64,000 bases of DNA from a phage. The position numbers and the translations under genes were made by a program. This document shows, piece after piece, positions 16,444 to 54,885 of this stretch (within the stretch, counting starts at the first letter, position 1; each line of letters begins with the position of its first letter). The stretch lies in the sequence record PZ386959.1; one strand, 5' to 3'. The notes beneath the pieces were generated by a model that was not told where the DNA came from, searched no databases, and saw only the letters and a program-made list of their open reading frames with translations.

Positions 16444-17484
16444 ATGGAGAAGTACACATTAACAAAACTTCCAGATTCAGTTACACATGTCTTTATTGAC
16501 TCTGACAGCATTGCCTATAAAGGTGCTTGTGTAGTTGAGAAAGCAAAGTATAAATACGTTAATAAACTCACAGCAGAAGAATCTGAACCATTTGATAATG
16601 CGAAAGATGCTGCAAGATGGTTAGCAGACCAGAGAATCCTTGTGGAAGAGCTTGGCCTGACATTTGATGAAGATGAATGGGAAAGACAAACTTGGAAAGA
16701 AGCTAAGAGTGAAAAAGAAGCTATCATGGCTACTCAACAGGTGCTTCAGGAATGGCTTAAGATTGTTGGTAAAGAAAGAACTTGGGTAGGTTATTTAACA
16801 GAGAAGGGTGTGCATAAACATAAAGACATTAAAGGTCTTGAGCACCAATATCAAGGTAACCGTAAAGATGCCGTCACACCAACACACTTAGTCGCTTGTC
16901 GTGAATACCTTTTATCCAGACCAGAGTTCAAGCTCTTAAAGGGGGGCTTCGAAGCCGATTCAATCGTAATTGCTAAAGCTGAAAATATGGGTAAGAAGGC
17001 TGCTCTTATGAGTATTGACAAAGACCTTCGACAAGCTGAAGGAACTTATTGTATTGATATGACTTATGAAAAATCACCACTAATCTTTATTGCTGATAAT
17101 AATGTTGGTGATATCTGGGATTGTCCTATCAAATCAAAACCAAAAGCTGCAAAAACAGTTGGTGTAGGTTTTAAATTCTTGTGCTATCAGGCTGTTGCTG
17201 GAGATAATGCAGACAACTACTTCGGACTTAAAGGTGCTGGTAAAGTAGCTGTGATGAATGCTTTAGATGGTAAAGAGACCTACAAAGAGTGTCTTGATGC
17301 TATCTATGAACTTTATGCTAAAAAAGACTCTTATACCTATGTGTCATGGGATGGACAGACTGTTACAAAGACACCGTTAGAGTTAATGGAACAGCATTTC
17401 TGGATAGCATATCAAGAGAGAAATCCAAAAGATAATTTCTCTTTTAAGAAATATAATTGGGAGCCGTGTATGAATGAAGATTAA
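16444..17484 (+). CDS. 5'-3' exonuclease / flap endonuclease
   Basis: 346 aa; VFIDSDSIAYKG (N-domain), ADSIVIAKAENMGKKAALMSIDKDLRQ (I-domain, EADD..DKD-like), GDNADNYFGLKGAGKVAVMNAL (H3TH-like). Confidence 0.65.
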   Translation: MEKYTLTKLPDSVTHVFIDSDSIAYKGACVVEKAKYKYVNKLTAEESEPFDNAKDAARWLADQRILVEELGLTFDEDEWERQTWKEAKSEKEAIMATQQVLQEWLKIVGKERTWVGYLTEKGVHKHKDIKGLEHQYQGNRKDAVTPTHLVACREYLLSRPEFKLLKGGFEADSIVIAKAENMGKKAALMSIDKDLRQAEGTYCIDMTYEKSPLIFIADNNVGDIWDCPIKSKPKAAKTVGVGFKFLCYQAVAGDNADNYFGLKGAGKVAVMNALDGKETYKECLDAIYELYAKKDSYTYVSWDGQTVTKTPLELMEQHFWIAYQERNPKDNFSFKKYNWEPCMNED

Positions 17485-17971
17485 AGGATTTGGCAATTGC
17501 CCCACCTATGGTCATTGGGTATCTTTATGTGGGGAAGTTGACCCCACTAAACATTTTGGTTTTGTATATTTAGTATATTGTAAGAAAACCAGACAATATT
17601 ATATAGGGAAGAAACAGTTTAATAGCGTGACCAAAAGAAAAGTTGCTGGCAAGACTCGGAAGAAGGTAGTCACTAAGGAGAGTGATTGGATGACTTACGA
17701 GACTTCTTCTGAGTATATTAAAAAAGATATTGAGAGCTTTGGAAAAGAATTTTTTGACTTTTACATTATCCAAACCTACTACACGAAAGGTGGCCTAGTT
17801 TATGGTGAAGCAAACCTCCAACATAAATTCGATGTAATGACAAAAAGGATTGACTCTAAGCTCAGACTCTTCTACAATGCCAACATTGCAGCAATTAAGT
17901 TTATCACTAAAGAAACTTATGAGGATGCTGAAAAAAGAATCCATAAGGTAATGAAAGCAAATTGTGCTTGA
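17474..17971 (+). CDS. GIY-YIG homing-endonuclease-like protein
   Basis: 165 aa; GFVYLVYCKKTRQYYIGKK fits the GIY..(10 aa)..YIG motif. Confidence 0.45.
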   Translation: MKIKGFGNCPTYGHWVSLCGEVDPTKHFGFVYLVYCKKTRQYYIGKKQFNSVTKRKVAGKTRKKVVTKESDWMTYETSSEYIKKDIESFGKEFFDFYIIQTYYTKGGLVYGEANLQHKFDVMTKRIDSKLRLFYNANIAAIKFITKETYEDAEKRIHKVMKANCA

Positions 17972-23756: not shown

Positions 23757-25901
23757 ATGAACAAAGTACAGATTATTAAAAAGAATGGCTCACTCGAAGA
23801 ACCTGATATCAAAAAAGTTTTAGCAGCAGTCACAAAGTCAGCTAATAGGGTTGGGTATAAAGAACTCCCACCAGATGTTACTCAAGCTCTTGAGTCAGCA
23901 TTTATGAGGATTCTGGTAAAATCTACTAAACAGAATAATTTACTAATTTCGGTAAACGATATTCACAGTATTGTTGAAGGTGCTTTGGCAGAGGTCAATC
24001 ACGAGATTTATGAGTCTTACTCAACATACAGAAATTACCGTAAAGAGGTTGCTCAAAATTGGGATGAACTTTACCAAAAGACTAGAGACACACTCTTCTT
24101 AGGTGACCGTGAAAATGCTAACTTTGACAGCAGTTTAATTTCTACGAAAGGTTCAATTATCCGTGGTTACCTGACTAAAGAAATCTTTAAACAGTATCAT
24201 CTAACACCAGAGGAACTTGAAGCCATTGAGAAAGGCTTTATCTATATCCATGATTTGAGAGACCTGATTTTTGGTGGTATTAACTGTTGCCTGTTTGACA
24301 TTGGTAAAGTACTAAAAGGCGGCTTTGAAATGTCCGGCATTGAGTACTGTGAACCTAAATCTGTACTGTCAGCGTTGCAGGTTATTGGTGACGTAGTACT
24401 TTCAGCAACTGCACAGCAATTTGGTGGTTTTACTTTAGCAGAGATTGATAAGGTACTTGTACCGTATGCTAAGAAGTCTCTACGCTATCATGCTGAGAAA
24501 GCATCATCTTATGGTATTCCTAAAGAGCATTACCACAATTATGTAATGGAGCAGTTACAAATTGAACTGACTCAAGGTTTTCAGTCACTTGAGATGAAAC
24601 TAAATACCGTACCTTGTAGCCGTGGTGATTTTGCATTCACAACTTTAACATTTGGTTTACTTGACTCAGATATGTCTAATGATGATAATCGACTACAATA
24701 CATGATTGCAAGTACTCTCCTAGATGTTCGTATGAATGGACAAGGCAAGAGCAAAAAACCTGTTGTATTCCCTAAACTGGTTTATATTTATGACCAGAAG
24801 AGACATGATGAAAATATCTGTCAAGGTCACCTGTACAGTAAAGCTATTGAGTGTTGCTCTAAAGCAATGTACCCAGATTTCTTAAGTGTGTCTGGTCATG
24901 GTGCTGTAGCAGAGGCTTTTGAGCGTTCTGGTAAGGTAATTTCACCGATGGGTTGCAGAGCCTTTTTATCTCCATATCTTAATGAGGGTGGAGAAGAGTT
25001 CTACGTTGGTCGTGCTAACATTGGTGCTGTATCTTTGAACTTACCAATGATTTACCAGTATTCTAAAGAGAATGGCTTAGATTTCTGGAAAGAGCTTGAT
25101 AAGTACCTAGAGATGATTCGTAGTTTCCATAAGAAACGCTACGAAATGATTGCTAATATGCCAGCAAGCTCTAACCCTCTTGCATTCACACAAGGTGGTC
25201 TGTACAAAGGAACTAAGAAACCTACTGACAAGGTTGGTTGGGATATTGTGAAGTCCTTCACAGCTTCTTTTGGTGTTACTGCGCTTGATGAGTTGTCTGT
25301 TCTTGCTGAAGGTAAACGACTGCATGAAGTTGGAAGCTATAGTTTTGCATATGATGTTCTGGCATACATTAACATGAAAACCGAAGAGTTTAAAAATGAA
25401 GATGGCTTCTTATATGCCGTCTATGGTACTCCAGCAGAATCACTTTGCGGAACTCAACTAAAACAGTTCAGAGATATGTTTGGCGTTATCAAAGGCGTTT
25501 CTGACAAGGAATACTTTACAAACAGTTTCCATATGAATGTTGCAGCAGACATCTCACCATTTGAGAAGCAGGACTTAGAAGAACCATTCTTCCATATCTG
25601 TAGAGGCGGTAGAATCCAGTATGTAAGAGTAGCTAACCCAGAAAACTTATCAGCACTTAAGAGCTGTATTACAAGAGGGATGTTGAAAGGTTTCTATCAG
25701 GGACTTAACTTTGACTTAGCAATCTGTGAGCATTGTGGTAACAGACCAAAATCAGATGTTGAAGAGTGTGAAGTTTGTCACTCACATGATATCTCTGTGA
25801 TTAACAGGGTGTGTGGGTATCTTGGGTGGACTAAGATTAAAGGTGAATCCCGAATGAACGATGCAAAAATCGCTGAGATTCGTGACAGAGTTTCTATGTA
25901 A
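23757..25901 (+). CDS. nrdD: anaerobic ribonucleoside-triphosphate reductase
   Basis: 714 aa; ATP-cone N-terminus, C-terminal Zn site CEHCG..CEVC and glycyl-radical motif RVCGYLG. Confidence 0.9.
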   Translation: MNKVQIIKKNGSLEEPDIKKVLAAVTKSANRVGYKELPPDVTQALESAFMRILVKSTKQNNLLISVNDIHSIVEGALAEVNHEIYESYSTYRNYRKEVAQNWDELYQKTRDTLFLGDRENANFDSSLISTKGSIIRGYLTKEIFKQYHLTPEELEAIEKGFIYIHDLRDLIFGGINCCLFDIGKVLKGGFEMSGIEYCEPKSVLSALQVIGDVVLSATAQQFGGFTLAEIDKVLVPYAKKSLRYHAEKASSYGIPKEHYHNYVMEQLQIELTQGFQSLEMKLNTVPCSRGDFAFTTLTFGLLDSDMSNDDNRLQYMIASTLLDVRMNGQGKSKKPVVFPKLVYIYDQKRHDENICQGHLYSKAIECCSKAMYPDFLSVSGHGAVAEAFERSGKVISPMGCRAFLSPYLNEGGEEFYVGRANIGAVSLNLPMIYQYSKENGLDFWKELDKYLEMIRSFHKKRYEMIANMPASSNPLAFTQGGLYKGTKKPTDKVGWDIVKSFTASFGVTALDELSVLAEGKRLHEVGSYSFAYDVLAYINMKTEEFKNEDGFLYAVYGTPAESLCGTQLKQFRDMFGVIKGVSDKEYFTNSFHMNVAADISPFEKQDLEEPFFHICRGGRIQYVRVANPENLSALKSCITRGMLKGFYQGLNFDLAICEHCGNRPKSDVEECEVCHSHDISVINRVCGYLGWTKIKGESRMNDAKIAEIRDRVSM

Positions 25902-28356: not shown

Positions 28357-28410
28357 AAAGATACTATAAGGGGACTGTAAAGGTTCCCTTTTTATTTTTG
28401 TGGAGATACT

Positions 28411-28926
28411 ATGTACCTGTCAAACCTGAAACGTTCTGCTGCAATATCTGTTCTGAGACTAAGCTTTGAAGAGCGTCAAGAGTTCATTGATTCTCACCAA
28501 TATGACCCTTCCAATTCCAATCACATGATTCTCTGGAACCGTGATAACTTCCGTGAAAGAGCACTTGTCCGTTATTACCCACACTACACAATAGATAACC
28601 TGTATGAATGGTGTGTTGTGAAGAACACTATTGCAACACTTAACAATCTTTGCAGGTATACAGGCAAGCAAACATTTACACTAGGTCACCACAAGCCTGT
28701 TACAAAAGGTGGTGAACATCACTGTGCAAACTGGTTTATCCAAACTAAAGCTGATAACCAGAAGCAAGGAGATAGACTCCTAAGCATCCCTAAGATGACC
28801 TATGAAGAGCAAGAGAGATATATCAAAAATAATATGCCAGATGTGCTTGACAACAACTATACAGATTTGGCAATATCTCTCCTGTTGAAGTTCGAGACAG
28901 TTTATAGGGCAACTTACAATGGCTAA
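28411..28926 (+). CDS. HNH endonuclease-like protein
   Basis: 171 aa; LGHHKPVTKGGEHHCANWFIQTKADNQKQGD resembles HNH core (HH..N..N). Confidence 0.45.
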   Translation: MYLSNLKRSAAISVLRLSFEERQEFIDSHQYDPSNSNHMILWNRDNFRERALVRYYPHYTIDNLYEWCVVKNTIATLNNLCRYTGKQTFTLGHHKPVTKGGEHHCANWFIQTKADNQKQGDRLLSIPKMTYEEQERYIKNNMPDVLDNNYTDLAISLLLKFETVYRATYNG

Positions 28927-29197
28927 AGAGAAGTGGGAAATTTTACCATTAGTGAGTGAAGGCGGTAACGGTTGTGAGATGTACATGATACGTGGTCATG
29001 TACCAGAACCAATTGCACTTGAGATGGTAAACAATTTTACAGATGGCTCTTACAAAGATTTAGGAGAGCCAACTATAAAGCATCAATGGGTCAAACCTGT
29101 ACCAGACAGCACAGGTAACTGTAGTGTACTTTATCACGTTGTAGACCCTGCAAAATGCAAATCTGCAATGGCAGTAACAAACGTAACTTTTGATTGA
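28919..29197 (+). CDS. hypothetical protein
   Basis: 92 aa ORF. Confidence 0.4.
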   Translation: MAKEKWEILPLVSEGGNGCEMYMIRGHVPEPIALEMVNNFTDGSYKDLGEPTIKHQWVKPVPDSTGNCSVLYHVVDPAKCKSAMAVTNVTFD

Positions 29198-29208
29198 GAG
29201 AGAAAACT

Positions 29209-30090
29209 ATGAAAACTGTTATTGAAGTCGTTGTCACCGCACAAGAGAAATTCTTCCACACAGAAAAATTTAATATCATCCAATTCCCATCTGGAGAAAT
29301 TGGTGGAAACTTCTCTGAAGAATTTGTTAAGTTTACTGAGCGTAATGCTGGTAAGATTGACAATGTTATACTTACTGTGCAGGGATATGATAAAGATACT
29401 CTGTTTGCATTAGCTTTGGCTAAGGATGCCGTTGACAGTCTTGTTCCATATAAGTCAGCGATGAAAACCGTTGTTTTCGGGTTCTTACCAAATGCTCGGT
29501 ATGACCGCCATATGTTCAAAGGTGATTCAGCAGCACTGAAAGCTTTTGCCAACCTCGTTAATGCAATGGGTTTTGATGCAGTATGTGCTCTTGACCCTCA
29601 CAGTAATGTTGCAGAAAACTTATTTAAGTGCTTTCAGAGCATGAAGCAAAAAGATGTAGCAGTACACTTTGCAAGTGACCCACGCATTGATTTCTTGGTA
29701 GCCCCAGATGCAGGCGCAGCTAAGAAGACTGAAGAGGCTGCTAAAGAGGTGGATAAACCATATATCACAATGTCTAAAGTGCGCAATCTTAAGACTGGAG
29801 AAATCACTGGTATGCGAATCCTTGACGATGTTGATTTGACCGATAAAACTGTCATGATTCTCGATGATATCTGTGATGGTGGTCGAACCTTCATAGAGGC
29901 AGCTAAACATCTTCGTGAAGCAGGTGCAAAACGTGTGGAACTCTATGTAACTCATGGCATTTTCTCTAAAGGGGTTGAAAACTTACTTGACAATGGTATT
30001 GACCATATCTACACTACAAACTCTTTAGGAGAAGCTAAAGACCGTGGCTTAACACATTATGCCCAAGTTACTGTAATTACCATTGATTGA
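29209..30090 (+). CDS. ribose-phosphate pyrophosphokinase family protein (Prs-like; candidate ADP-ribose pyrophosphokinase)
   Basis: About 293 aa; PNARYDRH (Prs YARQDR-like) and PRPP-binding loop MILDDICDGGRTF (DDxxDxGGT); directly upstream of Nampt-like gene. Confidence 0.6.
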   Translation: MKTVIEVVVTAQEKFFHTEKFNIIQFPSGEIGGNFSEEFVKFTERNAGKIDNVILTVQGYDKDTLFALALAKDAVDSLVPYKSAMKTVVFGFLPNARYDRHMFKGDSAALKAFANLVNAMGFDAVCALDPHSNVAENLFKCFQSMKQKDVAVHFASDPRIDFLVAPDAGAAKKTEEAAKEVDKPYITMSKVRNLKTGEITGMRILDDVDLTDKTVMILDDICDGGRTFIEAAKHLREAGAKRVELYVTHGIFSKGVENLLDNGIDHIYTTNSLGEAKDRGLTHYAQVTVITID

Positions 30091-30136
30091 AACTTTATAG
30101 GGGCTTCAAAGCCCCATTTTGAGAGAGATTAAAAAG

Positions 30137-31918
30137 ATGACTAAATCACTTTATGCAGTACCAGCAGGTTTAAACGCAGATGCTTACAAATCTGGTCACA
30201 TTTACCAGTACCCTAGTGCAACAGAGTACTTGATGTTTAACCTGACACCACGTAGTGACAAATGGTTTAACAGTCCCTTAGCAATTGATGGTGTGGTTGC
30301 TTTTGGTATTCAACGTTTTGTTAAAGATTACTTGATAGACCACTGGAACGCCACCTTCTTTGAACGTGACAAAAAAGAAGCAATTGACGAAATCTTAGAA
30401 GTCATGAACGGTGTTCTGGGTAAAGATGCTATTGGTCGAGAACATTGGGAAGCACTCCATGACTTAGGTTATCTTCCAGTTGAAGTATACGCTGTAGAAG
30501 AAGGCACAGTTGTCCCTATGCGTGTACCAATGATTGTCTTCCAGAACACTGTCTCAGGTTTCCATTGGGTAGCGGGGTATCTGGAAGATGCTTTCTCTGC
30601 TGAGATTTGGAAGGCTTGTACCATTGCAACTATTGCATTGCACTACAAACGTATTTGTAAGAAGTGGTCTGACCTTACTTGTGACAATGACTTACATTTG
30701 CCTTATCAGTGCCATGACTTTGCTATGCGTGGTATGTCTGGCTTTACTGATGACGCATTTAATGCTGTAGGTCACTTAACCAGCTTTAAAGGGACTGATA
30801 GCTTCCCTGCTGTATACACGGCTAAACGCATCTATGGGCAGTCCTACCCAATCTCTGATATTGGTAGTTCTGTACCAGCCACTGAACACTCTGTAATGTG
30901 TGCAAACATTGCTTGGGAAGGTGGTAATGAGTTGATTGAAGAAGAAAGACGCTTTAAAGGTGAGTTACAAACCTTCCGTCGTTTCTTAACAGAAACTTAC
31001 CCAACTGGTATTGCAAGTGTTGTTTCAGATACTTATAACTTCTGGAGAACTGTATCAGTTATATTACCAGAACTTCGTAAAGAGATTATGGAACGTGATG
31101 GTAAACTGGTAATTCGCCCTGACTCTGGAGACCCTGTACATATTGTCACAGGTTATAAAGCAATCCACTTAGAATGTGCTAAGAAGGCTTATTACGAGCA
31201 CCTAAGCAAGCTGGAAGCTAGTGACACAATGTTGAATGCTGTTCTGAACATGAAGCTTGAAAACATCAACTATGGCATTGCTGGATGGCTACTGTCAGAA
31301 GGATACGAAATGGTTGTTGACAGAGAAGACTTTGAAGTTGCTGATACAGTGATGTTGAAAAATGCTTATATGGTTGGTTCTGCAAACGTTGTAACACGTC
31401 CTGTAGCTGAGATTGATGGAGCTATTAAGACACTGTACAACATCTTTGGTGGAGCTATTAACTCTAAAGGGTTTAAGGTACTGGATGAGCATATCGGCCT
31501 TATCTATGGTGACTCTATCACTCTGGAACGTGCAAACGAAATCCTGAAGCGTCTGTATGAAATGGGTTTTGCAAGCTCTAACGTAGTGTTTGGTGTAGGC
31601 TCTTACACTTACCAGTACATGACTCGTGACACCTTTGCATTTGCTGTCAAAGCAACTCTTGCAAGCATTGGTGGTAAAGAGATTATGCTTGCAAAAGACC
31701 CTAAAACAGATAGTGGTGTTAAGAAATCTGCCTTTGGTGGTGTAGCACCTATGTGGGATGGTGATAAGCTGAAAGCTGTAGATGGCTATGGATTCCAGAG
31801 TTTTGCAGATGTACTTGACCACCCAGCTTGTGCTTTACGTTTAGTCTTTAGTGACTCTGAGCAGTTTGGTTACACAACTCTTGGTGATATTCGAAATAAT
31901 ATTGACAAGCAGCTTTAA
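30137..31918 (+). CDS. nicotinamide phosphoribosyltransferase family protein (Nampt/NadV-like)
   Basis: About 593 aa; family-level resemblance only (N-terminal DAYKSGH; length and placement next to a Prs-like gene); no catalytic motif verified. Confidence 0.55.
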   Translation: MTKSLYAVPAGLNADAYKSGHIYQYPSATEYLMFNLTPRSDKWFNSPLAIDGVVAFGIQRFVKDYLIDHWNATFFERDKKEAIDEILEVMNGVLGKDAIGREHWEALHDLGYLPVEVYAVEEGTVVPMRVPMIVFQNTVSGFHWVAGYLEDAFSAEIWKACTIATIALHYKRICKKWSDLTCDNDLHLPYQCHDFAMRGMSGFTDDAFNAVGHLTSFKGTDSFPAVYTAKRIYGQSYPISDIGSSVPATEHSVMCANIAWEGGNELIEEERRFKGELQTFRRFLTETYPTGIASVVSDTYNFWRTVSVILPELRKEIMERDGKLVIRPDSGDPVHIVTGYKAIHLECAKKAYYEHLSKLEASDTMLNAVLNMKLENINYGIAGWLLSEGYEMVVDREDFEVADTVMLKNAYMVGSANVVTRPVAEIDGAIKTLYNIFGGAINSKGFKVLDEHIGLIYGDSITLERANEILKRLYEMGFASSNVVFGVGSYTYQYMTRDTFAFAVKATLASIGGKEIMLAKDPKTDSGVKKSAFGGVAPMWDGDKLKAVDGYGFQSFADVLDHPACALRLVFSDSEQFGYTTLGDIRNNIDKQL

Positions 31919-31933
31919 AAGTATATGATAAGA

Positions 31934-31954
31934 GGCTCCTACGGGAGCCTTTTT
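31934..31954 (+). terminator. intrinsic terminator
   Basis: GGCTCC-TACG-GGAGCC followed by TTTTT. Confidence 0.7.
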
Positions 31955-53287: not shown

Positions 53288-53752
53288 TTACTTTGGATAT
53301 ACACTGTCAAGATAAATGTTAGCTTCCATTCTACGTCTATTTTTCAGGCCGTTTGAAGTGACCTTCTCACCTTTGACTGTAATCTTGTTCCACCACTGCA
53401 TAGCTTCTGCACAACCTACCTTATTACCAGCATTGTGGCGCTTAATAAATGTAGAATCCTGCATAGCTGTGATACCAATGTTGTATGTTTCACTTACAAG
53501 TGCATCGAACTCATTCTGAGAGGTTGGAACCTTGATAGCTTTGTTCACTGCTGCAACAAACTTTTCAACATCTGCGAGAAGATACTGTTCAGCTTGTCCA
53601 GCCGTGATTTTCATACCCATCTTAACAGGTTTTCCGTCAATACGGATTGTACCATACCCGATTGTTGGGATTCCGGCAGAGTCTTTGTAAGCCTCTAACT
53701 TCAGACCTTCAAAGAACTTAATGGCTTCTAAGCCTTTTCTTGAGAGTTGCAT
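53288..53752 (-). CDS. endolysin (lysozyme, GH24-like)
   Basis: 154 aa; LEAIKFFEGLKLEAYKDSAGIPTIGYGT is the canonical phage lysozyme N-terminal catalytic motif (E..AY.D..G..TIGYG). Confidence 0.85.
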   Translation of the reverse strand: MQLSRKGLEAIKFFEGLKLEAYKDSAGIPTIGYGTIRIDGKPVKMGMKITAGQAEQYLLADVEKFVAAVNKAIKVPTSQNEFDALVSETYNIGITAMQDSTFIKRHNAGNKVGCAEAMQWWNKITVKGEKVTSNGLKNRRRMEANIYLDSVYPK

Positions 53753-54885
53753 TATGCCTCCCCTGTTGGGTTAACTGTAACTGTTGCCGCATTAGATGTT
53801 ACAGAGCCACCTGCACCAGTCACTACGCAAGTGTAGCTTCCTGCATCAGCAGCAGTTGCACCTTCTTTGGTGTAAGTTGCAGTCATTGCGTCTGGGATGT
53901 TTTCCTCACCCTTCTTCCACTGGTAACCTGTCGCACCTGTTGCCACAACGTTGAGTGTCAATGTCTCACCTTCAGTGATTTCTTGATTAGTTGGCTGTTG
54001 AGTGATTACAGGAAGTGCTTTAACGGTTACTGTTGCAGGGCTAGAAGTAACGGAACCACCTGCACCTGTTACAACGCAAGTATATGAACCTGCATCTGCT
54101 GGTAGTGCGCCAGACTTGCTATAAGTAGCGTTTGTAGCTGAAGGAATATTAGAGCCATCTTTCTTCCACTGATAGCCCGTTGCACCTGTGGCAGTCACTT
54201 CCAAGCTAATGTTGCCACCTTCATTGATGGTCTGGCTAGAAGGTTGTTTGGTAATCACTGGTAAAGCGTTCACAGTAACTGTTGCTTCATCTGAGGTAAC
54301 GCTTGTTCCAGCCTCTCCAGATACAACACAAGTGTATGAGCCAGCGTCAGAAGGTACTACAGATTGTTTTGTGTAAGTTGCAGAAGTGGCACTGGGGATA
54401 TCCTCACCATCCTTCTTCCACTGATATCCAGTGGCGTTAGTTGCTAGAACACTTAGAGTAAGTGTGCCACCCTCATTGACTGTTTGTCCTGTTGGTTGCT
54501 GAGTAATTGCTGGTGGCTTAATAGCATCCTTCAGCTTAGCATTCAACATTGAGAATGGCTTCACTCTTGCCAGCCATTCACAGTAAATTGTGTCAACATC
54601 TTTACCGTTGATAATTGCATACTGTAAATCCATGAAGAAATCAGCAGTTCTCATCTGCGCGCCGACGCTGTAAAGGAGTTCATCACTAAATGGAACTTTG
54701 TAGTCTGGTTTGTAATCAAACTTCTCAACTTCTGCAATATCAGCTTCAGGCCAATATGAACTATAGGTAAGTGGTAAAATAGCTTCTTGATATGTTCTAA
54801 AATCATATCTCTTACCAGCCTTTACATTTGCAATGAAGCCCTTTACAAATTCTTTGAAGTCTGGGTAAGTCTTTGCTTTAATCAT
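53752..54885 (-). CDS. protein with three tandem Ig-like domains
   Basis: 377 aa; N-domain about 130 aa followed by 3 repeats of about 84 aa each containing GYQWKKDG and GSYTCVV (Ig Y-x-C signature). Confidence 0.6.
   Translation of the reverse strand: MIKAKTYPDFKEFVKGFIANVKAGKRYDFRTYQEAILPLTYSSYWPEADIAEVEKFDYKPDYKVPFSDELLYSVGAQMRTADFFMDLQYAIINGKDVDTIYCEWLARVKPFSMLNAKLKDAIKPPAITQQPTGQTVNEGGTLTLSVLATNATGYQWKKDGEDIPSATSATYTKQSVVPSDAGSYTCVVSGEAGTSVTSDEATVTVNALPVITKQPSSQTINEGGNISLEVTATGATGYQWKKDGSNIPSATNATYSKSGALPADAGSYTCVVTGAGGSVTSSPATVTVKALPVITQQPTNQEITEGETLTLNVVATGATGYQWKKGEENIPDAMTATYTKEGATAADAGSYTCVVTGAGGSVTSNAATVTVNPTGEA
53755..54510 (-). repeat. 3 tandem copies of a ~252-bp coding repeat (Ig-like domain units)
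   Basis: DNA-level periodicity visible (CTTCCACTG.TA.CC.GT.GCACCTGT recurs at about 252-bp spacing). Confidence 0.6.

Follow-up and report, generated by a model that had tools for sequence, protein, structure and literature searches.

A Felix O1-like phage locus that very probably encodes the two-gene NAD+-rebuilding system NARP1

Introduction

NARP1 allows phages to rebuild NAD+ from the products of host defence by means of two previously unknown enzyme reactions. It was discovered in the genes gp79/gp80 of phage Bas63 (Osterman et al., bioRxiv 10.1101/2024.02.11.579819). In the same study, Bas63 lacking gp79/gp80 was sensitised to SIR2-HerA and showed lower NAD+, ADPR-pyrophosphate (ADPR-PP) accumulated only when the wild-type phage met a defence system and was abolished by the deletion, and the protection was independent of the host genes pncC and nadR. 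Its supplementary tables assign the proteins of AYO145A, Felix O1 and Bas63 to the Adps clade or to the Adps-associated Namat proteins and list these phages as NARP1, and the Bas63 Adps is among the sequences by which the Adps clade is defined. In vitro reactions have been published for the enzymes of SPbetaL1, DyoEdafos and Paenibacillus (P. foliorum), and for Bas63 the published data are in vivo metabolomics only; we found no in vitro characterisation of a Felixounavirus Adps or Namat in the NARP1 literature. The SPbetaL1 pair (PDB 9w5w, 9w5x; PMC12774641) is characterised both biochemically, including K162A and R306G knock-outs, and structurally. A related class, NARP1-AP, has the organization Adps-Adpp-Namat, as in Vibrio phage Gary, and its in-operon Adpp removes the phosphate from ADPR-1″-phosphate and so counters aRES (bioRxiv 10.64898/2026.01.28.702374).

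According to the proposed mechanism, once a host defence system (SIR2-HerA, DSR1/2, type I Thoeris, SEFIR or others) splits NAD+ into ADP-ribose and nicotinamide, Adps would move pyrophosphate from ATP to the 1″ position of ADP-ribose to give ADPR-PP. Namat would then swap the pyrophosphate for nicotinamide and thereby yield NAD+ directly, with neither an NMN intermediate nor an adenylyltransferase; at the entrance of its active site, one subunit would contribute Trp43 and its partner Tyr490 and Tyr494 to a clamp that stacks the adenine. Since such a pathway feeds solely on what the defence leaves behind, it would lie idle in undefended hosts. Here, we describe a gene pair of this kind in a 64-kb stretch of phage DNA (hereinafter the window).

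Results

Layout of the locus and its transcription unit

The window is part of a Felixounavirus (Felix O1-like) phage genome, which as a whole measures about 87 kb. Genes for an Adps and a Namat lie adjacent and co-oriented on the + strand, in the order NrdD, NrdG, small ORFs, adps, namat, small ORFs, rIIA, rIIB, and the region also encodes further nucleotide metabolism (NrdAB, NrdDG, DHFR and a dNMP kinase). A program-made ORF list gives both genes TTG starts (29194..30090, 298 aa; 30119..31918, 599 aa); in orthologues, translation is annotated to begin at ATG codons that correspond to 29209 and 30137 and give proteins of 293 and 593 aa, and an identical 10-mer, TTGAGAGAGA, precedes both of these ATGs. 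The original prediction of a same-orientation pair separated by 28 bp thus stands as regards orientation, and its spacing holds for the TTG starts (30091-30118), whereas between the adps end at 30090 and the orthologue-type namat start at 30137 the spacer is 46 nt.

Upstream, the terminator scan detected a hairpin of nine stem pairs followed by a T-run (28368..28390, + strand), at a position where a rho-independent terminator is annotated in AYO145A; this is likely to be the 5′ boundary of the transcription unit holding adps-namat. Between it and adps, the ORF list has two small overlapping ORFs of 171 and 92 aa (28411..29197, + strand), which are conserved in Bas63 as bas63_0077 and bas63_0078 and show no Pfam match above the cut-off, including no Macro and no RyR domain. 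They may be co-transcribed with adps, and they stand outside NARP1 as published. At the other end, the terminator foreseen after the pair is indeed present as a hairpin with a 10-bp stem and a T-run in the terminator scan (31930..31953, + strand; folding energy −17.1 kcal/mol, z −3.2).

A further hairpin, GGGGCT-TCAA-AGCCCC followed by ATTTT, lies between the adps stop and the namat start (30100..30115, + strand). Its fold (−12.6 kcal/mol, z −2.1) falls under the threshold of the terminator scanner, and the AYO145A annotation calls the equivalent hairpin a rho-independent terminator; it may terminate transcription weakly or influence the stability of the RNA. As an observation in its own right, which may be new, the adps-namat spacer that holds this hairpin in the window is occupied by an HNH endonuclease gene in relatives.

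A divergent Prs-family protein of the Adps clade

The first gene (29209..30090, + strand) encodes a divergent Prs-family protein of 293 aa, which is identical to Bas63 gp79 at 280 of its 293 positions (96%). It matches the TIGR01251 ribose-phosphate diphosphokinase model with 134 bits (cut-off 113) and phrog_619 with E 1e-98, and it contains both anticipated motifs, PNARYDRH (residues 94-101) and DDICDGGRTF (residues 219-228). However, the broad subfamily model TIGR01251 is the only one of the NCBIfam Prs models that it passes; it lies below every housekeeping-Prs equivalog cut-off, the best being NF002095 with 112 bits against 296. The closest relative is the AYO145A Adps (99.3% identity), and identity is 29% to the SPbetaL1 Adps and 27% to the E. 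coli Prs. The protein has relatives of 96-99% identity that published work assigns to the Adps clade, and on sequence grounds it is a member as well.

The alignment reveals invariant residues R97, D99, R100, H131, K190, R192, D219 and D220, of which K190 aligns to K162 of SPbetaL1, the flexible-loop catalytic Lys that corresponds to K197 of the B. subtilis Prs. In the ribose-phosphate-binding loop DDICDGGRTF (29863..29892, + strand, from the alignment), the position after DDxx[D/S] is Gly or Phe in Adps, as against Thr (DTxGT) in the E. coli, human and Sulfolobus Prs. This replacement of DTxGT by DGGRT (or SFGGT) may have a bearing on the binding of ADPR; no Adps structure in which ADPR binding could be compared with that of ribose-5-phosphate was found in the PDB or in the literature searched. 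The enzyme would catalyze the reaction ADPR + ATP → ADPR-PP + AMP.

A Nampt-fold protein with the adenine clamp of Namat

The second gene (30137..31918, + strand) encodes a 593-aa protein of the Nampt fold, identical to Bas63 gp80 at 583 of 593 positions (98%). Its assignment to the Nampt family, originally proposed from overall resemblance for a protein of about 590 aa, is borne out by matches to NF006629 (464 bits; cut-off 405) and phrog_448 (E 1e-200), and its catalytic motif can now be verified. The AF2 model (pLDDT 92.9) finds its best solved match in the SPbetaL1 Namat (9w5x; TM 0.95 over the target, 38% identity). Conserved catalytic residues comprise D15, Y17, F195, R198, D221, H251, R327, D329, G458 and D459; among these, H251, R327, D329, D221, F195 and R198 align to the catalytic residues of Nampt and of the SPbetaL1 Namat (in the numbering of the latter, the catalytic His, Arg306, Asp308, Asp215, Phe189 and Arg192).

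Both elements of the clamp can be recognized. The selectivity-clamp loop (SCL), S40-D41-K42-W43 (30254..30265, + strand), aligns to T38-S39-R40 of SPbetaL1 and is identical to that of Bas63. The criterion for this loop is an Arg as the third residue, or a Lys/Tyr followed by a stacking residue; according to the Namat structure paper, where the third residue is Lys it is the fourth that stacks on the adenine, the Bas63 Namat being the example. The fourth residue here is Trp43, and the published AF3 model suggests that it would stack on the adenine. The selectivity-clamp helix (SCH) motif GSYTYQYMTRD (residues 488-498; 31598..31630, + strand) matches the published Namat signature GS-X-Phi-X-Phi-X-Phi-TRD, with aromatics at motif positions 3 and 7. 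The equivalent segment is GSFTYQYNTRD in the SPbetaL1 Namat, GAQTYQRNTRD in the Haemophilus ducreyi NadV and GGALLQKVDRD in the Xanthomonas Nampt; thus, the SCH aromatics are present in the window protein and absent from NadV and Nampt. We infer that the protein carries out the reaction ADPR-PP + nicotinamide → NAD+ + PPi.

As a side observation that may be new, the model contains a confidently folded mini-domain of about 85 aa (residues ~340-427; 31154..31417, + strand), which is inserted directly after the strand bearing the ribose-binding Arg327/Asp329. Neither the SPbetaL1 Namat nor any solved Nampt structure has this insertion, no structural relative of it was detected, and it goes unmentioned in the text of the paper on the Namat structure. 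The Bas63 Namat has the same domain, and the insert is lineage-specific, of the Ounavirinae type. It could serve in docking or regulation, for example, by helping Adps to pass the labile ADPR-PP on to Namat.

NAD+ reconstitution versus conventional salvage

The NARP1-like Adps and Namat module originally predicted proves to be the orthologue of Bas63 gp79/gp80 in the same genomic position, and we consider it very probable that the two genes constitute NARP1 in this Felix O1-like phage. The most obvious rival is conventional salvage, wherein a PRPP synthetase and a NadV-type transferase would supply NMN for completion to NAD+ by the host NadR or PncC. This is how the annotated public records examined name the pair, the Pfam and NCBIfam family names agree with it, the surrounding NrdAB, NrdDG, DHFR and dNMP kinase genes speak of nucleotide metabolism, and the SPbetaL1 Namat still forms NMN from PRPP in vitro, keeping about half of the NMN-forming activity of human Nampt, so some conventional activity is conceivable. 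Nevertheless, Namat offered both substrates makes NAD+ only, and the Bas63 genes, at 96-98% identity, still confer protection when the host lacks both pncC and nadR and yield ADPR-PP only under an active NADase defence. The proteins themselves also argue against it: a first gene product that clusters with housekeeping Prs and a second that groups with NadV would be expected for salvage, but the former, 27% identical to the E. coli Prs, reaches no Prs equivalog cut-off, and the latter has the Namat-specific adenine clamp, which is missing from NadV and Nampt. We accordingly rejected the housekeeping Prs/NadV reading, which is very improbable.

A NARP2-type pathway, in which a phage Nampt works with a phage NMN adenylyltransferase/Nudix protein as in Vibrio phage KVP40, would likewise employ a Nampt-family protein, and some 23 kb of the genome lie beyond the window, where such a partner could be encoded. 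Yet, here the Namat gene adjoins a gene of the Adps clade, its SCH motif matches that of Namat proteins, and in the published work no phage was found to combine NARP1 with NARP2. The initial impression that an NMN adenylyltransferase is missing from the window was also correct: neither CTP_transf_like (NMNAT, PF01467) nor Nudix (PF00293) was found in window ORFs of at least 45 aa, and no NMNAT is annotated within the 35 kb of Bas63 that were examined. With an Adps present and no NMNAT/Nudix in the 64-kb window, NARP2 was rejected as hardly conceivable. NARP1-AP was rejected too, as no Macro gene lies inside or next to adps-namat; indeed, a Pfam search of the flanking ORFs found neither a Macro nor a RyR gene in or beside the operon. 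The absence of NMNAT/Nudix genes from the 64 kb and of Macro/RyR genes from the operon thus points to a plain two-gene NARP1.

For the two-gene NARP1, the enzymes assayed in vitro are distant from those of the window (29% identity for Adps, 38% for Namat). The window phage’s own Adps and Namat would perform the reactions of the Bas63 type, and the 96-98% identity to Bas63 suggests that the pair would counteract NAD+-depleting defence during infection.

A distal Macro-domain gene

We also observed, as a side finding that may be new, an Adpp-like Macro-domain gene in the same genome as NARP1. It codes for a 261-aa protein and is situated 7.5 kb downstream of the pair (39401-40186). One could imagine an extended NARP1 in which this protein dephosphorylates ADPR-1″-phosphate in trans and so counters NAD+ phosphorolysis of the RES type (aRES). 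A Macro domain makes up its N-terminal 160 residues (Pfam E 1.5e-7), this region is 27-35% identical to the Adpp of Vibrio phage Gary (E 4e-14) and of a Pseudomonas phage (E 5e-18), hhalign against the Adpp alignment gives a probability of 99.6%, and the gene is conserved in Bas63, where it is annotated ‘putative phosphatase’. On the other hand, it lies outside the operon, its ~100-aa C-terminal extension is uncharacterised, and the solved proteins closest to it in sequence are deacetylases of the OARD1 type and not Poa1p. The published table of Adpp proteins, which covers only genes adjoining adps/namat, has no Escherichia or Salmonella phage. Moreover, Macro proteins with the same degree of similarity are encoded in about 2,800 phage records, among them that of T4, a phage not known to carry NARP1; hence, homology alone does not link the Macro gene to NARP1. 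We find an action in trans doubtful and, in view of these thousands of equally similar proteins, T4 included, rejected the gene as a member of the module.

It is likewise rather unlikely that the module exceeds the published two-gene NARP1, be it through a role of the Namat insertion, an unlinked Macro protein that channels ADPR-1″-phosphate into it, or both, roles to which homology and predicted fold alone would point; the text of the NARP1 papers mentions neither. With such a Macro protein, Felix O1-like phages would possess the NARP1-AP capability without operon linkage.

Comparison with known systems

The E. coli Prs (b1207) shares with the window Adps the fold family, RxDR, the His, the flexible-loop Lys/Arg and the DD motif, but differs in overall sequence, as noted above, and in having DLHA where Adps has DPHS and DTGGT where it has DGGRT. 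NARP2 and conventional salvage (KVP40 Nampt and Nmnat; H. ducreyi NadV, PDB 9ke8) have the Nampt fold and nicotinamide-binding core in common with the window, which, unlike them, has an Adps and no NMNAT partner, and shows Y and Y in the SCH in place of the Q and R of NadV. A core of Adps and Namat is shared with the NARP1-AP loci and with the RyDEP-containing NARP1 loci (bioRxiv 10.64898/2026.05.28.727677). However, the latter have a RyR gene that is missing from the window operon, and in the former the Macro gene is in the operon and codes for about 160 aa, as opposed to 261 aa and a distance of some 16 genes in the window.

SPbetaL1 resembles the window in having two adjacent, co-oriented genes, the catalytic His/Arg/Asp core, the SCH GS[FY]TYQYxTRD and the Adps Lys (K162 = K190). 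In addition to the low identity of both proteins, it differs in the SCL (Arg40 as opposed to Lys-Trp), in its overlapping genes, which in the window are 46 nt apart with a hairpin, and in its Namat, in comparison to which that of the window has the extra folded domain of ~85 residues and a loop 14 residues longer near residue 260. In place of the domain, the SPbetaL1 Namat has a linker of 15 residues, and it does not bind Adps.

The closest system is that of Bas63 (JohannRWettstein, MZ501086, bas63_0079/0080), a phage of the same genus with the same gene order and protein lengths (293 and 593 aa), a downstream terminator at the same position, and identical catalytic and clamp residues throughout. 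Adps differs at 13 positions and Namat at 10, none of them a known functional residue, and nrdD, into which a homing endonuclease gene has intruded in Bas63, is uninterrupted in the window. The DNA around the pair is ~93-96% identical to that of other Felixounaviruses, and there are about 250 near-identical copies of the pair in public phage records; those examined label it ribose-phosphate pyrophosphokinase/nicotinamide phosphoribosyltransferase or leave it unannotated. The practical value of the present comparison lies in annotation, the current database labels being misleading; the pair is no new system but one already known, a near-identical copy of the founding example of NARP1.

Gene models, family assignment and identity with the Bas63 prototype

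We found the two co-oriented ORFs of the original prediction on the plus strand, where a mechanical ORF list gives both a TTG start (29194..30090, 298 aa; 30119..31918, 599 aa). Orthologous records place the starts at the ATGs at 29209 and 30137, resulting in proteins of 293 aa and 593 aa. A 10-mer, TTGAGAGAGA, is found upstream of both ATGs, at 29194-29203 (5 nt away) and 30119-30128 (8 nt away), and is probably a ribosome-binding context common to the two genes; its presence ahead of both ATGs accounts for the TTG starts given by the mechanical caller. Thus, the predicted 28-nt gap holds for the TTG starts, but moving to the annotated ATGs makes the spacer 46 nt. The first gene (adps), which contains both of the predicted motifs, PNARYDRH and DDICDGGRTF, codes for a ribose-phosphate diphosphokinase family protein (TIGR01251, 134 bits with a cut-off of 113; phrog_619, E 1e-98). 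The second (namat) codes for a Nampt/NAPRTase family protein (NF006629, 464 bits against a cut-off of 405; phrog_448, E 1e-200), and these matches bear out its earlier Nampt-family call.

NARP1, a two-step reconstitution of NAD+ from ADPR and nicotinamide by Adps and Namat, was discovered in the BASEL phage Bas63 (JohannRWettstein) as genes 79-80 (bioRxiv 10.1101/2024.02.11.579819). Bas63 (MZ501086), also a Felixounavirus, shares the window's gene order: NrdD, NrdG, small ORFs, 79, 80, small ORFs, rIIA and rIIB. The products align without gaps to gp79 (280/293 identical, 96%) and gp80 (583/593, 98%), and the nearest Adps is that of phage AYO145A (99.3%). The supplementary tables of the same study list AYO145A, Felix O1 and Bas63 as carrying an Adps-clade protein with an associated Namat. 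There, Bas63 lacking genes 79-80 formed ~20-fold fewer plaques on SIR2-HerA cells, with a deeper NAD+ collapse, and an m/z 720.010 ion, identified as ADPR-pyrophosphate, was seen only with the defence system and both phage genes (bioRxiv 10.1101/2024.02.11.579819). Loss of both pncC and nadR from the host did not stop wild-type Bas63 from escaping; therefore, NMN-based host salvage is not needed. In the literature examined, the enzymes assayed in vitro come from outside Felixounavirus. For those of SPbetaL1, Adps pyrophosphorylates ADPR and Namat converts ADPR-PP and nicotinamide to NAD+; the latter accepts PRPP when this is the lone donor, yet yields only NAD+ when both donors are present. 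That pathway is abolished by K162A in Adps and by R306G in Namat.

Active-site residues and the selectivity clamp

The Adps reading is supported by comparison with housekeeping Prs profiles, as the protein falls far below every equivalog cut-off. E. coli Prs is just 27% identical to it. Where a residue choosing ADPR over ribose-5-phosphate might be sought, the sole consistent difference seen between the two kinds of sequence is in the phosphate loop, which is DTxGT in Prs as against DGGRT or SFGGT in Adps. In the alignment, R97, D99, R100, H131, K190, R192, D219 and D220 are invariant, with K190 matching SPbetaL1 K162 and E. coli Prs K194. The PDB copy searched holds no Adps structure.

Namat retains every contact residue described for nicotinamide or the NMN moiety in SPbetaL1 crystals (D15, Y17, F195, R198, D221, R327, D329, G458 and D459, along with G488, S489, T496, R497 and D498), together with the catalytic His251. 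The Namat-specific selectivity-clamp helix has the motif GS-X-Phi-X-Phi-X-Phi-TRD with aromatics at motif positions 3 and 7 (PMC12774641). It reads GSYTYQYMTRD in the window and GSFTYQYNTRD in SPbetaL1, whereas the equivalent position is GAQTYQRNTRD in Haemophilus ducreyi NadV and GGALLQKVDRD in a Xanthomonas Nampt. The variable clamp loop is S-D-K-W, as in Bas63, a type in which the fourth residue provides the stacking (PMC12774641). Among solved structures, the best match to an AlphaFold2 model of the protein (37 homologues; pLDDT 92.9) is SPbetaL1 Namat (TM 0.95 over the target), with NadV and mammalian Nampts ranking behind. We also observed chromosomal homologues of 495-496 aa (P0069, P0072, P0086 and similar proteins; 46-48% identical) in Klebsiella, Cronobacter, Erwinia and related enterobacteria, which are annotated as nicotinate phosphoribosyltransferase and bear the Namat-type clamp GS[YF]TYQYNTRD; they fit the reported bacterial NARP1 homologues.

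A predicted insertion domain in Namat

The window Namat is ~100 residues longer than that of SPbetaL1, and the bulk of this excess is a block of ~85 residues (~340-427; 31154-31417) directly after the Arg327/Asp329 strand. Among the 37 homologues this site (reference residues 340-430) ranges from 19 to 99 residues, and a second variable site near residue 260 from 10 to 48. Structure prediction confidently folds the block into a separate alpha/beta mini-domain, whether within the full protein or on its own (pLDDT 94.1, pTM 0.83), and no structural relative of it was found in PDB or BFVD. By tblastn the insertion is lineage-specific, being confined to Felix O1-like phage records, and Namat homologues of 590-610 aa in a protein search reach Yersinia, Pectobacterium and Salmonella SB18-type phages. 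The text of the Namat structure paper does not mention it, though Bas63 Namat is aligned and modelled there (PMC12774641).

Operon anatomy and genome setting

A terminator-like hairpin (28368-28390) lies 5' of two small ORFs with no assigned function, followed by adps and namat, between which there is a short GC hairpin (30100-30115; -12.6 kcal/mol, z -2.1). The terminator predicted to follow the pair is present as a sequence feature, a strong one with a 10-bp stem and a T-run (31930-31953; -17.1 kcal/mol, z -3.2). Just upstream of it, spanning the last namat codons, is a near-consensus plus-strand sigma-70-like promoter facing the downstream genes (31902-31929; TTGACA, 16-nt spacer, TATGAT; 11/12 matches). 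Curated annotation of AYO145A has terminators at the equivalents of 28368-28390 and 30100-30115, and a promoter at that of 31902-31929. In VpaE1 the adps-namat spacer (30091-30136) is occupied by a gene for a 163-aa HNH endonuclease (L008:1115-1606), and an annotation note records an HNH endonuclease gene there in Felix O1; the spacer looks like a site of homing-endonuclease insertion within the operon.

Many Felix O1-like phages infecting Escherichia, Salmonella and Shigella match the region at 95-96% DNA identity, and ~250 records hold the pair. Typical Felixounavirus genes in the window code for DNA polymerase A, primase-helicase, NrdAB, NrdDG, DHFR, dNMP kinase, rIIA and lysozyme. Two adps allele classes were seen among Felixounaviruses, with ~50 records at 95-99% protein identity to the window and ~200 at 77-82%. 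The megablast match of the second class starts only at query base 291, which points to mosaic recombination inside adps (5' third, 29209-29500).

Elsewhere, nrdD (23757-25901, +) is a single uninterrupted ORF of 714 aa; the Bas63 annotation instead joins it from two segments on either side of a homing endonuclease gene (bas63_0067/0068). Amid the replication genes (17474-17971, +) lies one for a SegE-like GIY-YIG homing endonuclease (PF19835, E 2e-25). Adjoining the phage lysozyme gene (53288-53752) is one for a 377-aa protein (53752-54885, -) that bears three immunoglobulin-like domains in tandem. Finally, 26 tRNA genes, likewise part of the typical Felixounavirus content, are clustered at 58545-63556 (+), across which the short opposite-strand ORFs called are probably spurious.

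Pathway variant and relation to known systems

We scanned every window ORF of at least 45 aa, run as concatenates, against Pfam. As predicted, no NMNAT (PF01467) was visible among these ORFs within the 64-kb window, out of a genome of ~87 kb, nor was a Nudix domain; for the part of the genome covered, NARP2, which combines Nampt with Nmnat, is therefore ruled out. The ORFs flanking the pair contain no Macro or RyR domain, which likewise rules out both an operon-linked NARP1-AP, the form with an in-operon phosphatase, and a RyDEP-containing locus. The pair is thus the plain two-gene form of NARP1.

The gene at 39401-40186 (+), 7.5 kb from the operon, encodes 261 aa, comprising an N-terminal Macro domain and a C-terminal extension of ~100 aa; its Bas63 counterpart is Bas63_0095, a 'putative phosphatase'. 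In NARP1-AP, ADPR-1''-phosphate is dephosphorylated by Adpp (bioRxiv 10.64898/2026.01.28.702374), to which this Macro domain is homologous, with 27-35% identity and an hhalign probability of 99.6%. Macro proteins of equal similarity occur in ~2,800 phage records, T4 included; therefore, homology alone gives no tie of this gene to NARP1, and such a link is absent from the text of the NARP1 literature examined.

Taken with the gene order and the clamp motif, the 96% and 98% identity to Bas63 gp79 and gp80 supports the NARP1-like reading originally proposed: the pair is very probably NARP1, and we infer its enzyme activities in this phage from sequence. The Namat insertion domain and the distal Macro-domain gene go beyond the text of the NARP1 literature examined; the system itself is already known, being the published prototype re-identified in a sister phage.
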